Part shown: in pieces, positions 41,693-43,997 of the stretch
How positions within the stretch are numbered: position 1 is the stretch's first letter
How the letters are laid out: each line of letters opens with the position of its first letter
Position numbers and translations under genes: made by a program
The notes under the pieces: model-generated
What the model was told of the DNA's origin: nothing
The model's database searches: none
Seen by the model: only the letters and a program-made list of their open reading frames with translations
Virus genome (UHGV): UHGV-1451962
Direction: 5' to 3' (one strand)
DNA length: 64,000 bases
Source of the DNA: a virus

Positions 41693-42349
41693 TTATTGTC
41701 CACTTGTACAAGAAGGAGGATCGGCACACGAAGTGCTTGAATTTCTTTGACAACCAGAATTACATCTTCCACAATTACCTCTATTACATTTTTCACAACC
41801 TCTATCGCAGCTTTCACAAGTATCACAAGTAACATCACAATTTGCATTACATTTATTACATTGATCTTTTTTATATTTTAATGTATTTGCCGCAGTCTCT
41901 AAACCAGAAAAATAAGAACCTAAAAGATCATCTCCTGGAGAAACATTAGATGCAGTACCACTATGGCCGCCTAAACCATTTAATGCTCTACTAACTGCAT
42001 TAAAATCTCTTGCTCTCATAGAAGATTGAGTAATTCCACCACTACTGATACCAGGACTTCCACCATTTTTTTTAGTACCTTTAGCATAAGCATTACAAAT
42101 AAATTTATAAATACTATTCCATGTACTTAATGTAAAAAATTGTTGTCCTCTTGCAGTACAAGCTCCCCAACTAAAACTACCTACCCTTTGATGGCTATCT
42201 TCACAAAAAGATTGACAATCATTACAGCCGGAGCATTTATCACCTTTCATACAACCAGAATCACATTTTTCACAAGAATCACATGATTCGCAACTATTGC
42301 AAGATTGACATCCTGAATTACATTTTTCACAACCCAATAGATTCACCAC
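41693..42349 (-). CDS. Cys-rich protein with CxxC-repeat termini (candidate radical-SAM substrate)
   Basis: 218 aa; N-terminus CEKCNSGCQSCNSCESCDSCEKCDSGCMKGDKCSGCNDCQSFC, C-terminus CNKCNANCDVTCDTCESCDRGCEKCNRGNCGRCNSGC, Gly/Ser-rich middle; start overlaps upstream radical SAM gene. Confidence 0.6.
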   Translation of the reverse strand: MVNLLGCEKCNSGCQSCNSCESCDSCEKCDSGCMKGDKCSGCNDCQSFCEDSHQRVGSFSWGACTARGQQFFTLSTWNSIYKFICNAYAKGTKKNGGSPGISSGGITQSSMRARDFNAVSRALNGLGGHSGTASNVSPGDDLLGSYFSGLETAANTLKYKKDQCNKCNANCDVTCDTCESCDRGCEKCNRGNCGRCNSGCQRNSSTSCADPPSCTSGQ

Positions 42350-43571
42350 CTTCTAATTTATAATCTAAATATTCTTTAAAAAATTGATTTTTCTCTTGCT
42401 CGACAAGAATTTTCATCATTAAAATTCCACCTTCAAGAAGAATTTGATTGTAAATACAATCAATAGAAGGTCTAATAAAAAAGTCATTAAACATATCACG
42501 CGAAACAGAAGGACAAACTTTATGAATACAAGCTTGTCGTAGCTTACAATTACTACATAATTCTTTTTTAGAACTAATTATAGTTATTGCTTCATTATAA
42601 TCAGTCAGCATTTTCTTATGTTTTTCTATATTGATACCATTAAAAATATCACCAATATAAAAATAATCATTTTCATCTCTTGAATCTTGCTCTTGACAAC
42701 CATAAATTTTACCATCATAAGCAATAGAAATAGAACCAGTTCCTAAACCACATCTGCGAACTCCGCGAGAAGGGGATAGATCAGAAAAATTTTTAGTATA
42801 AGTTTGAAGGTCTATATCAATAATATCATCAAAAGCACTATCTAAATTAGAATAAAGAATGGGAATTTTTCCTTCAATGTAATTCATAGTCGTATAAGTA
42901 ATAATTTTTCCAATTTCTTCTCTTAAAATTTTAATATTTTCTTCTGACCATTCTTCTCTAGCATTTGGACACATAAAAATTTGTCTAAAACCACACTTTT
43001 CTGCGAACAAAAATGATTCAAACATTTTATCTATTGTTGGCTGGTAAAGAGTGGAGCGAAAAGTAGTATTAGGAAAATATTTAAGAATAATAGGAATATT
43101 CTTTTCAACTAAATCAAAACTACTTAAATTTGTATCTCGACAAGGTCGATTATAATCCTGTACTTCTTTTATTCCATCAATAGAAAGAAGAAGTTTAATA
43201 TTATTATCATAACAAAATTTAACTCTTTCTTCATTTAGAAGAGTTCCATTTGTCGTCATATCAAAATGAAAAGTATCAGGATATTTCTCTTTAGTATATT
43301 TAACAATAGGAACAATAATCTGTTCCCATAAAAGAGTCGGCTCACCGCCAAAAAATGTTACTTCATTCTTTTGATTTTCTCTTCCAGTAAGCTCTTTGTA
43401 TTTTACTAAATTTTTGGCTAAAAAATCTATCGCATTTTTAGCCATTTCTACATCCATATAATGCGGCTTTTGATGTACAAAGCAATATCTACATTGTAGA
43501 TTACAATTATCTGTTAAATTTAAACACGCATTAATAGGATACTTAAAAGTTTCATCATAATTATAACTCAT
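42327..43571 (-). CDS. Radical SAM enzyme with SPASM/twitch-type auxiliary cluster domain
   Basis: CNLQCRYC (CxxxCxxC), FFGGEPTL, C-terminal CGLGTGS...GC and CSNCKLRQACIHKVCP clusters. Confidence 0.8.
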   Translation of the reverse strand: MSYNYDETFKYPINACLNLTDNCNLQCRYCFVHQKPHYMDVEMAKNAIDFLAKNLVKYKELTGRENQKNEVTFFGGEPTLLWEQIIVPIVKYTKEKYPDTFHFDMTTNGTLLNEERVKFCYDNNIKLLLSIDGIKEVQDYNRPCRDTNLSSFDLVEKNIPIILKYFPNTTFRSTLYQPTIDKMFESFLFAEKCGFRQIFMCPNAREEWSEENIKILREEIGKIITYTTMNYIEGKIPILYSNLDSAFDDIIDIDLQTYTKNFSDLSPSRGVRRCGLGTGSISIAYDGKIYGCQEQDSRDENDYFYIGDIFNGINIEKHKKMLTDYNEAITIISSKKELCSNCKLRQACIHKVCPSVSRDMFNDFFIRPSIDCIYNQILLEGGILMMKILVEQEKNQFFKEYLDYKLEGGESIGL

Positions 43572-43595
43572 AATTTTTCTGAAACTCCCTCCTAT

Positions 43596-43934
43596 TTACA
43601 TATTATCTTCAATCGCTGCAAGGATATCCATGCAAGCATCATATTCGCCCATGCTTTTATTGAAATAATCCTTCATTTTATTCATAAACTTTTCTGCTTC
43701 TTCAACCTTAGAATTTGCATTTGCAAATTTCTCTTTTGCAGTTTTAAGTCTCTTAGCTGCGATTTTCGCATCACATCGAGCAATAGCAAGGCCAATTCCC
43801 TTTTCCAAGTCAAAAACATCTCCACCCTTAATATCACATCGTGCTACACCTCTAACAGGTTGCTTAGCAAAAGTGGATTCCGCAATCACCATATCAGTGT
43901 AATTACTAAAAATCTTATACCGACCATACTTCAT
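43596..43934 (-). CDS. hypothetical protein, first gene of radical SAM operon
   Basis: Probable start at internal Met (MKYGRYKIF) after AAAAGGAGATAATAAAT RBS; 112 aa. Confidence 0.45.
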   Translation of the reverse strand: MKYGRYKIFSNYTDMVIAESTFAKQPVRGVARCDIKGGDVFDLEKGIGLAIARCDAKIAAKRLKTAKEKFANANSKVEEAEKFMNKMKDYFNKSMGEYDACMDILAAIEDNM

Positions 43935-43967
43935 ATTTATTATCTCCTTTTTTAATTTTCTATATAT

Positions 43968-43997
43968 ATTATAATATAAATTTTTAAAAAATTCCAA
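43968..43997 (-). promoter_or_regulatory. Sigma-70-type promoter (TTGGAA-N18-TATAAT)
   Basis: Reverse complement TTGGAA, ~18 nt, TATAAT upstream of radical SAM operon. Confidence 0.45.

Follow-up and report, generated by a model that had tools for sequence, protein, structure and literature searches.

A phage-encoded radical SAM/SPASM enzyme without RRE and its neighboring Cys-array protein: a candidate thioether stapling system for protein-sized substrates

PapB is a radical SAM (rSAM)/SPASM enzyme which introduces multiple thioethers from Cys to the C-beta of Asp into a repeat-rich core (PMC8326336), and in vitro the enzyme tolerates leaderless substrates (PMC12715619). In the NxxcB/NxxcA system of Streptococcus orisratti, the thioether connects a Cys with the C-beta of an Asn located three residues upstream (PMC8326336). 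The sole established case of Cys-Asp and Cys-Glu thioethers formed by an rSAM/SPASM enzyme in a protein subunit and not in a RiPP is QhpD, which acts on QhpC, the gamma subunit of quinohemoprotein amine dehydrogenase (PMC8326336). A phage system of this kind is not described in the open-access papers and bioRxiv entries searched. In this work we analyzed a phage operon with an enzyme related to these maturases, and with modest confidence we favor the interpretation that the phage encodes an RRE-less system for the thioether “stapling” of substrates that are protein-sized and probably associated with the virion.

The operon is located in a stretch of 64,000 nucleotides of the virus genome UHGV-1451962, which was analyzed as a whole and is referred to as the window. 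All three ORFs are encoded on the minus strand, and the order of the elements is terminator, promoter, gene of the 112-aa protein, rSAM gene and Cys-rich gene. The features are as follows:

44007..44037, minus strand: terminator-like hairpin with a 14-bp stem (5 GC pairs) and a subsequent T run
43957..43997, minus strand: promoter-like site with 10/12 consensus positions, TTGGAA-18-TATAAT, including the extended phage motif TATTATAATATATATAGAAA
43596..43934, minus strand: gene of the 112-aa protein, ATG at 43934 with the ribosome-binding site AAGGAG ahead
42327..43571, minus strand: radical SAM/SPASM enzyme, 414 aa, Pfam Radical_SAM 57.1 bits, match to CteB
41693..42337, minus strand: Cys-rich protein, 214 aa (TTG 42337) or 218 aa (GTG 42349), overlapping the rSAM stop
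42203..42331, minus strand: N-terminal Cys arm, composed of C-[NQDE]-x(1-2) units; 13 of its 43 residues are Cys
41861..42193, minus strand: conserved three-helix domain (three beta/loop-helix repeats), common to phage tail-cluster proteins
41708..41860, minus strand: C-terminal Cys arm; 13 of its 51 residues are Cys
41653..41692, minus strand: next copy of the phage promoter motif, TTGAAA-17-TATAAT, 11/12 consensus positions, exact motif match

A preliminary description of this DNA had credited the operon with a consensus promoter of its own, and a promoter-like site is indeed present: TTGGAA-18-TATAAT spans positions 43997-43968 and follows the hairpin at 44037-44007. The hairpin closes the upstream tail-fibre-like gene and represents the 5' boundary of the module; its 3' boundary is the promoter copy at 41653..41692, ahead of a tRNA array of seven genes (39930-41241). 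The extended promoter motif occurs in 11 copies within the window, all of them on the minus strand, compared to 0.26 expected copies. As the motif is shared with tRNA arrays and DNA-metabolism genes, which it also serves, late structural expression is not suggested by it. The operon had further been placed between the tRNA array and tail-fibre genes. The tRNA array is indeed present, but the “tail fibre” label of the upstream genes derives from weak matches only (Mtd_N, 21.1 bits at a cutoff of 26.3; tail-spike PHROG, E 4e-5).

The 112-aa protein heads the operon, as originally proposed. A longer start, giving 146 aa, was discarded, since it would read through the terminator hairpin. The N-terminal half of the protein is Rv2632c-like and is followed by a long C-terminal helix; three of five homologues matched PF08962 (E 1.7e-5). 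Homologues with 35-43% identity are encoded directly upstream of the rSAM gene in L003-5, L014-17 and L095-97, while the gene is absent from this position in L001, L006 and L010-13 and is missing from about half of the lineages. The protein is thus an optional partner of the module, and with its Rv2632c-like half and its patchy occurrence it was rejected as a stand-alone RRE.

The 414-aa enzyme contains the rSAM cluster motif CNLQCRYC at residues 23-30 (C23/C27/C30) together with FFGGEPTL, and its Pfam Radical_SAM score (PF04055, 57.1 bits) is above the cutoff of 29.5, so that the assignment initially made from these two motifs holds. The C-terminal SPASM/twitch clusters claimed at the same time are present as seven Cys in a SPASM-like arrangement (C274...G-x4-C292, then CX2CX5CX4C, then one Cys), whereas the Pfam SPASM score (PF13186) of 15.5 remains under the cutoff of 21.5; the spacing is X4 and not X3. 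C23, C27, C30 and all seven SPASM Cys are invariant within 20 homologues of 46-57% identity. The best NCBIfam match is the PapB family (NF047865) with 177.6 bits, under the cutoff of 340. Lower scores were obtained for CcpM (124.6 bits), nif11-type maturases (122.9 bits), the SCIFF maturase (TIGR03974, 114.8 bits, under 425), QhpD (TIGR03906, 92.3 bits, under 453), the CXXX-repeat peptide maturase (TIGR04115, 82.7 bits and 79-120 bits in relatives, cutoff of 350 unmet) and anSME (TIGR03942, 71.9 bits, under 349); no curated NCBIfam cutoff was reached by the window enzyme. The PapB-family scores of five other phage enzymes range from 181 to 230 bits, all under 340, and in all six phage enzymes PapB ranks first, followed by nif11-type, SCIFF, CcpM and QhpD in varying order. 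The closest solved structure is CteB (5WGG, E 1e-21), whose chain residues 99-384 align with residues 15-314 of the query. With PapB, CcpM, SCIFF and QhpD all scoring above anSME, the profile comparison supports a grouping of the enzyme with the thioether maturases of Cys-rich peptides and not with cofactor or sulfatase maturases, and it is probably a thioether-forming protein maturase. Most RiPP maturases use an RRE. No N-terminal RRE was found in the phage enzyme: the cluster motif is already located at residue 23, and the alignments to RRE-bearing families begin at family positions 79-99.

SPASM maturases catalyze many reactions, and besides the lack of a curated family above cutoff there are weaker matches to RumMC (sactipeptide, 64 bits), YhhB (cyclophane, 86 bits) and anSME (72 bits). 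The arrays might accordingly be modified by a different chemistry, be it sactionine (S-C-alpha) formation, epimerisation, the conversion of Cys to formylglycine or C-C/C-O cross-links. We regard this as very improbable in view of the constant first rank of PapB and of the nearly aromatic-free arms, which disfavor a cyclophane. In addition, the anSME motif C/S-x-P/A-x-R is absent from the 214-aa protein, and on this ground and for its low score the enzyme was also rejected as an anaerobic sulfatase maturase.

The rSAM gene and the Cys-rich gene are translationally coupled. TTG 42337 is the likelier start codon of the latter; it is preceded by the Shine-Dalgarno-like sequence AAGGTGGTG, yields the N-terminus MGCEKCNSGC and agrees with the N-termini of the homologues as well as with the 11-nt overlap called in L095. 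The overlap with the rSAM stop had been noticed before and stands, but the 23 nt given for it hold for GTG 42349, whereas TTG 42337 results in 11 nt. In relatives, the spacing of the two genes varies between an 11-nt overlap and a 3-nt gap.

Cys arrays had been described at both ends of the protein, and 13 Cys are in fact located within residues 3-45 and 13 within residues 160-210. The position directly after the Cys is occupied by N, Q, D or E in 21 of the 26 cases in the window arms (81%), a number reached by none of 5000 shuffles (10.2 +/- 2.0), and in 75% of the cases across the family (2003/2672; shuffle mean 1060 +/- 19). This Cys-[NQDE] unit was counted in favor of thioether formation because the same residues are the known acceptors of the ranthipeptide and QhpC type, namely Asn in NxxcA, Asp in freyrasin and Asp or Glu in the protein subunit modified by QhpD (PMC8326336). 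In the AlphaFold2 model both arms have a pLDDT below 50, in contrast to the confident core, and across the family they comprise 17-144 residues, with up to 113 Cys in a single protein. With such low pLDDT and variable length the predicted arms look like a substrate. Aromatic residues are almost absent from them, and their net charges calculated from the sequence are about -5 and -1, too low for the DNA mimic or acidic decoy that was considered as well; a ferredoxin-like partner was rejected owing to the hypervariable arm length.

The Cys-rich protein had no match in Pfam, NCBIfam, PHROGs or the PDB sequence profile, and a tblastn search against 50,697 GenBank phages was equally negative, probably due to low-complexity masking. 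The leader-like “IPxFL” motif of tail-type substrates was not found in the window subfamily. Reading of the ORFs and searches of Pfam, NCBIfam and PHROGs revealed neither a protease or transporter nor a signal peptide or double-glycine leader in the three-gene unit. The locus thereby departs from a canonical RiPP cluster, as its candidate substrate holds a folded domain and the unit is devoid of a protease and transporter.

The Cys-rich proteins constitute an unnamed family of 338 clusters at 50% identity with the common plan of Cys arm, three-helix domain and Cys arm. Related loci were collected with a profile deduced from the rSAM alignment. Wherever the rSAM enzyme reaches an HMM score of at least 500, a member of the Cys-arm family is encoded directly downstream; the synteny on which the proposed pairing depends was thus found in all close lineages examined and in Phass-1. 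The Cys-rich gene is not annotated in the GenBank record of Phass-1. Distant lineages, whose Cys-array proteins are different ones, show the linkage as well: a Cys-dense ORF lies between -150 and +1500 nt from the end of the enzyme gene in 26 of the 38 rSAM lineages sampled, against a background of seven Cys-dense segments in 369 kb elsewhere. Moreover, the rSAM subfamily follows the type of substrate, the window type favoring C-x2-C and the tail type C-x3-C. Conversely, none of five distinct loci with the domain minus the Cys arrays has an rSAM gene within 7-8 kb. In L101 an rSAM gene is located beside a domain protein which was shortened by the gene caller, and the missed N-terminus is a Cys array. 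In L018-L020 an additional gene (211 aa in L018/19, 172 aa in L020) is inserted between the two and the Cys arms are much reduced. L002 (MT835472) was discarded as a phage relative, as it represents a bacterial SCIFF locus with SecDF.

Arrays of CxxC and CxxxC are also well known to ligate metals, metal sites are frequent in the spikes and fibres of phage tails and the SPASM match in Pfam is sub-threshold, all of which would be in line with Cys arms that serve as structural Zn or Fe-S elements comparable to the metal sites of tail tips, are free of cross-links and belong to a protein which the rSAM enzyme uses as cluster or electron donor or does not act on in this manner at all. This explanation appears quite improbable to us, since co-occurrence and co-absence of enzyme and arrays across lineages and architectures are hard to explain without an enzyme-substrate relation; furthermore, the predominance of N/Q/D/E after Cys fits cross-link acceptors and hypervariable arms are unlike a redox partner. 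The Cys-rich protein is therefore taken as the probable substrate of the enzyme, and the joint occurrence of the two suggests that phages may use thioethers to staple certain proteins of their own, probably those of the virion surface.

According to the mechanism that we propose from the sequences, the enzyme would harbor one SAM-cleaving cluster and two auxiliary [4Fe-4S] clusters and would act in the anaerobic cytoplasm of the host on the co-translated 214-aa protein. Chemistry based on the 5'-deoxyadenosyl radical would join the Cys thiols of the arms to the beta or gamma carbons of the following Asn, Asp, Gln or Glu, giving thioethers of the ranthipeptide/QhpC class. The expected product consists of two rigid, redox-insensitive arms of many small thioether rings on either side of the three-helix domain.

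The middle part of the protein had been described as Gly/Ser-rich, which turned out to be misleading: residues ~49-159 form a conserved, folded three-helix domain in the AlphaFold2 model (pLDDT 84.6, pTM 0.81). The domain is homologous to the C-terminal domain of the array proteins of L027 and L101, which are encoded between tape-measure/tail proteins and tail-fibre or further downstream genes. Array-free versions of it are encoded where phage tail gene clusters end, and the domain hence has a function of its own. No convincing structural match of the domain to a known or solved virion protein was obtained; a weak fold match (E 0.68) is a 200-aa phage protein automatically annotated as “Six-cysteine peptide SCIFF”. 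Array proteins of relatives bear FN3 or Big_9 domains, and others match Hoc-like head decoration proteins with E values of 1e-85 to 1e-92. Given that phage tail gene clusters end with this same domain, we regard the mature protein as most likely a component of the virion (tail or surface) rather than a secreted peptide. Of the roles considered in the preliminary description, a virion or tail component and a toxin, the former has gained support from the FN3, Hoc-like Ig and tail-cluster fusions. The structural neighborhood emphasized there is not conserved within the window subfamily: tail-fibre-like genes are nearby in the window and in L010-13, but the module is surrounded by lysis and other genes in L006 and by metabolic, tRNA and hypothetical genes in Phass-1.

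These non-structural surroundings in Phass-1 and L006, the promoter motif in common with tRNA and DNA-metabolism genes and the resemblance of the arms to SCIFF cores, to which the automatic SCIFF annotation of the weak fold match may be added, would also suit a thioether-modified protein that is not part of the virion. Such a protein could act inside the cell as an effector, or lysis could release it, for instance as a signal, toxin or anti-competitor agent; its arms might be cleaved off to give peptides of the ranthipeptide kind, and the central domain would then provide the scaffold for recognition within the protein itself. SCIFF peptides have been reported as quorum-sensing signals (PMC8326336), which was counted for this possibility. 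We nevertheless consider it unlikely, as a protease, a transporter, a signal peptide and a double-glycine leader are all missing from the module, the domain occurs array-free at the ends of tail clusters and Hoc-like, FN3 and tail proteins are the fusion partners of related arrays.

On the preferred reading as a stapled virion protein, a broader and more tentative generalization can be made, namely that in many phages infecting anaerobic hosts of the Firmicutes type, parts of the virion surface, such as tail-tip or fibre accessories and Hoc-like decorations, may be made from proteins with Cys-Asx/Glx repeat arrays which phage-encoded, RRE-less rSAM enzymes close into chains of thioether rings. 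These enzyme-installed cross-links would be redox-proof and protease-resistant and would substitute for disulfides in a reducing habitat. If true, a viral structural protein would for the first time be seen to be cross-linked by a radical enzyme, in a natural form of ranthipeptide chemistry at protein scale, and phage assembly would gain a new type of post-translational maturation. Thioether chemistry of rSAM enzymes, so far almost restricted to short RiPPs and QhpC, would be extended to numerous and diverse phage proteins of 170-780 residues, and there would be a rationale for how phages of the gut and of anaerobes stabilize exposed proteins where disulfides cannot form. Compact, RRE-less enzymes working on repeat units of 3-4 residues beside arbitrary folds (FN3, Ig, helical) would be of interest for protein-stapling biotechnology, and a working annotation would become available for over 330 protein clusters and over 430 rSAM orthologues, none of which has a name at present.

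In comparison with the known systems, PapB, which forms freyrasin from PapA in Paenibacillus polymyxa, is the best-scoring curated family for the six phage enzymes (178-230 bits). PapB possesses an N-terminal RRE at residues 1-86 (PMC12715619) that is missing from the phage enzyme, and PapA is a short leader-bearing peptide with C-x3-D units, in contrast to the C-[NQDE]-x1-2 units in arms of 43-51 residues around a folded domain. Judged from the arm sequence, the phage arms string together [N/Q/D/E]-x(1-2)-C units and repeat an NxxcA-like geometry, whereas NxxcA itself is a short leader-bearing peptide with one bridge. QhpD scored 92 bits with the window enzyme and up to 138 bits with its relatives, at a cutoff of 453; its substrate QhpC, a small enzyme subunit, holds three bridges as well as a cofactor and has neither repeat arrays nor a phage context. 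The SCIFF (six-Cys-in-forty-five) core CGECQTSCQSACKTSC of the clostridial CteB/SCIFF type, taken from L002, resembles the phage arrays, but the phage enzyme lacks an equivalent of CteB residues 1-98, where the RRE is located, and a SCIFF peptide of ~45 aa encoded upstream of its maturase differs from the phage substrates, which are proteins of 170-540 residues encoded downstream. In the capsid “chainmail” of HK97, Lys-Asn isopeptide bonds are formed autocatalytically between the subunits. The phage module would be similar in that covalent cross-links would stabilize a virion protein, and it would differ in requiring a dedicated radical enzyme and in forming intrachain thioethers.

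The three genes of the module are densely packed on the minus strand, with the following layout.

Layout of the radical SAM (rSAM) module in the window
44041, minus strand: stop of the gene preceding the module
44037-44007, minus strand: strong terminator-like hairpin, 14-bp stem and T run
43997-43968, minus strand: promoter-like site TTGGAA-18-TATAAT, 3' of the hairpin and 5' of the three packed genes
43934-43596, minus strand: 112-aa gene, ATG start with AAGGAG ribosome-binding site
43571-42327, minus strand: 414-aa rSAM enzyme
42337 (TTG) or 42349 (GTG) to 41693, minus strand: Cys-rich gene, third of the module
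41692-41664, minus strand: second promoter copy, just 3' of the Cys-rich gene and ahead of a seven-tRNA array

Based on the hairpin and promoter at the 5' side and the further promoter copy past the Cys-rich gene, the module is predicted to be a discrete transcription unit. The promoter-like site agrees with the consensus promoter which the preliminary description had assigned to the module. The extended promoter motif TATTATAATATATATAGAAA occurs at 11 sites in the window versus 0.26 expected, all of them on the minus strand between 30852 and 60489 (e.g., 43957-43976, 41653-41672, and 60470-60489), and is located ahead of tRNA arrays, DNA/RNA-metabolism genes and the rSAM module. That this promoter class is common to tRNA and DNA-metabolism genes is a weak point. 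The start of the Cys-rich gene had been set at GTG 42349, which is possible; however, TTG 42337, preceded by AAGGTGGTG and giving a product that begins with MGCEKCNSGC, agrees with the N-termini of the homologues and with the 11-nt overlap called in L095 (L numbers denote relative loci in other phages or contigs). With either start, the gene overlaps the stop codon of the rSAM. The protein of 112 aa is Rv2632c-like, and about half of the lineages lack it.

The enzyme contains CX3CX2C at residues 23-30, the motif FFGGEPTL and seven SPASM-like C-terminal Cys residues, all invariant among 20 homologues (46-57% identity). Pfam Radical_SAM was matched over its cutoff (57.1 bits) and SPASM under it (15.5 bits, cutoff 21.5). 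The best profile matches are thioether-forming Cys-peptide maturases: within NCBIfam, the PapB ranthipeptide maturase (177.6 bits, cutoff 340), CcpM (124.6 bits), nif11-type (122.9 bits) and SCIFF maturases (114.8 bits) were followed by QhpD (92.3 bits) and anSME (71.9 bits). No curated NCBIfam family cutoff was reached; the proposed relationship to Cys-rich-peptide maturases nevertheless stands, with PapB, CcpM, nif11-type and SCIFF ranking above anSME. In the PDB, query residues 15-314 aligned to chain residues 99-384 of CteB (5WGG) with E 1e-21. More than 438 rSAM orthologue clusters, none of them named, are found on contigs of up to 228 kb.

The Cys-rich protein had zero matches in Pfam, NCBIfam, PHROGs and PDB. 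Its close relatives comprise 28 clusters, and a profile search yielded 338 clusters at 50% identity with E <=1e-3, 175 of which had E <=1e-10. Ten family clusters that were looked up are all metagenomic, nine being nameless and one a "hypothetical protein". In 141 members whose central domain is complete, Cys arm-domain-Cys arm is the usual layout, with arms of 17-144 residues and about 27% Cys; one arm is missing from a few members, in some cases apparently because the gene call is truncated. AlphaFold2 modelled the core of the full protein confidently and the arms with pLDDT below 50, while the isolated domain (58-sequence alignment) reached pLDDT 84.6 and pTM 0.81, with three helices and a short strand or loop before each. 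On this model, the middle of the protein, earlier described as Gly/Ser-rich, is predicted to be a folded, conserved domain and no linker.

The pairing of both proteins is retained in relatives. The Cys-arm gene lies directly 3' of the rSAM gene in L003-5, L006-8, L095-97 and Phage Phass-1 (L001, OQ749652.1). At the Phass-1 locus (5959-7690) the GenBank rSAM is broken at an in-frame TAG into WIC39641 and WIC39640, and the missing Cys-rich gene, unannotated and readable only with TAG as Gln, is located downstream at about 7153-7690. Close relatives of the two-gene module use three genetic codes: in-frame TAG stands for Gln in L003 and Phass-1, where it coincides with an invariant Gln column; in-frame TGA stands for Trp in L006 (L007 is likewise of the TGA type); and the window uses the standard code. 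Upstream of its module, at a distance of a few kb, L003 also carries two unrelated rSAM genes (440 and 453 aa; 1228-3898) that contain many in-frame TAG codons.

HMMs of both families were run against six-frame translations of 88 loci, and wherever the rSAM scored >=500 the Cys family was found immediately downstream, in accordance with the linkage initially proposed. In L018-20 an extra gene (211 aa in L018/19, 172 aa in L020) lies between the two, and the Cys-family homologue is divergent with much reduced arms. Relatives with 34-39% rSAM identity lack the window Cys family; another Cys-array ORF begins at their stop codon. With lineages defined at 80% rSAM identity, 26 of 38 had a Cys-dense segment (10 or more Cys per 60 residues) in the interval between -150 and +1500 nt relative to the end of the enzyme gene, and the remaining 369 kb of these loci contained only seven such segments. 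The negatives comprise distant rSAM clades (29% identity or less), the close lineages L014, L017 and L021 together with the more distant Phass-1 (31.7% identity), whose downstream Cys genes are under the strict density threshold, and the reduced-arm lineages L018-20. The most extreme arrays were seen in L098 (6021-11903), where two enzyme-substrate pairs are arranged in tandem with substrates of 515 aa (113 Cys) and 539 aa (96 Cys); a Thg1-like gene is found nearby. Loci outside the simple adjacency pattern, with Cys arrays located C-terminally in larger phage proteins, are L086 (2680-4167; a C-x3-C array of ~300 residues, then an (HSD)n repeat), where the array gene is upstream of a more distant rSAM relative, and L066 (7793-9118), where it is one gene away from such a relative.

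Within the 34-39% clade a leader-like motif (ELIxIPxFL or PLPEFL) usually precedes the array, except in the Hoc-like Ig-type substrates. The bodies of these tail-type substrates are FN3 domains (Pfam fn3) with a C-terminal helical domain, FN3 with Big_9 Ig repeats (PHROG 10993, "Hoc-like head decoration", E 1e-85 to 1e-92), or bodies of ~720 aa. In L027 the tape-measure gene is followed by genes for tail proteins, the rSAM, the array protein, a further tail protein and the tail fibre, and in L101 by those for a 1145-aa protein, the rSAM and the array protein. The central domain of the window protein is homologous to the tail-type C-terminal helical domain (hhalign probability 98%, E 2e-13, residues 57-158 of the window protein). 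This domain also occurs without arrays, as FN3 plus domain (212-224 aa) and once alone (126 aa). Five such loci were inspected (L089, L091/92, L093/94, L102, and L103): in all except L089 the array-less protein is encoded inside a tail-type gene cluster or immediately behind large tail proteins, in L093 after SPP1_Dit, one more gene and Prophage_tail, and no rSAM motif was detected within 7-8 kb at any of the five. L101 served as a small blind test of the enzyme-array rule: an rSAM lay upstream of a gene called as "domain-only", and the uncalled 400 nt between the two encode PLPEFL and a Cys array in the reading frame of the domain. Within this sample, enzyme presence predicts the array and vice versa.

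The surroundings of the window-type module vary between lineages, which is a weak point: the neighbours are tail-fibre-like genes in L010-13 as in the window, genes for lysis and other functions in L006, and tRNA genes, NAD-salvage genes and hypothetical genes in Phass-1. The tail-fibre genes of the preliminary description correspond to five or six small genes at 44041-48229, syntenic in L010-13, which share N-terminal motifs typical of receptor-binding/tail-fibre proteins; their position upstream of the module stands, but their identity derives from sub-threshold matches (Mtd_N in 46668-47900; YYLKD and "ASxxxxGxxKL" in others). The 17 tRNA genes form two minus-strand arrays (39930-41241 and 48466-50582); one of them (49175-49250), reported with the four-base anticodon tgaa and without an amino acid assignment, may be either an artefact of prediction or a tRNA of the frameshift type. 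Beside a tRNA array, an RNA-repair-type cluster (31778-39874) encodes a DUF2828/DUF7788 protein (PHROG 850, "RNA-binding protein", Ro-like), an RNA ligase and a nucleotidyltransferase; DUF2828 genes are also found downstream of the module in L010-14, L018, L020, L003 and L095. A 137.7-kb IMG/VR contig, UViG_3300045988_145614, contains the window. The phage, for which no close relative was found among GenBank phages, encodes an anaerobic ribonucleotide reductase (NrdD), DNA polymerase, topoisomerase II and RNA-repair genes. A 353-aa protein (37233-38294) with a subtilase (S8) C-terminal half and an SLH domain points to a host with an S-layer of the Firmicutes type. Together with NrdD and the Eubacteriales host proposed for Phass-1 (PMC10607447), this protease makes an anaerobic, S-layer-bearing Firmicute the probable host.

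In window-type arms C-x2-C is the commonest spacing, followed by C-x3-C, which predominates in tail-type arrays. N, Q, D or E occupies Cys+1 in 21 of 26 cases in the window arms (81%; shuffles 10.2 +/- 2.0, none of 5000 reaching 21) and in 2003 of 2672 (75%; shuffles 1060 +/- 19) across the window-type family; in tail-type arrays Q accounts for 43% and E for 28%. Since these residues are concentrated at Cys+1 and scarce at -1, +2 and +3 (11-20%), the repeat unit is C-[NQDE]-x(1-2), with Asx or Glx two or three positions ahead of the next Cys. Such arms may bind metal. We infer thioether chemistry because the Cys+1 residues are exactly the acceptors of ranthipeptide and QhpC bridges: Cys23 to Asn20 at C-beta in NxxcA, six Cys-to-Asp C-beta bridges in freyrasin, and Cys-Asp and Cys-Glu bridges formed in a protein by QhpD (PMC8326336). 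The rSAM would thread the disordered arms and install one small thioether ring per repeat unit, resulting in rigid, redox-insensitive arms on a domain that would dock on the virion; disulfides would be no option in the anaerobic host habitat.

The module is a real feature, and its gene coupling, enzyme class, invariant cluster ligands, conserved and co-varying linkage, shared domain and acceptor-type repeat have been demonstrated. No description of phage rSAMs paired with Cys-array virion proteins was found in open-access papers or bioRxiv, and the sole trace is a 200-aa phage protein that carries an automatic "SCIFF" annotation in UniProt/BFVD and whose fold match to the domain is weak (E 0.68). 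CteB and PapB possess an N-terminal substrate-recognition domain (RRE) of ~90 residues (1-86 in PapB; PMC12715619), whereas the window enzyme lacks it; a weak point of the window subfamily is that neither an RRE in the enzyme nor a leader in the substrate accounts for recognition. The chemistry itself would belong to a known kind; new are the clade of phage enzymes without an RRE, the substrates of protein size with folded domains, and the likely structural role.
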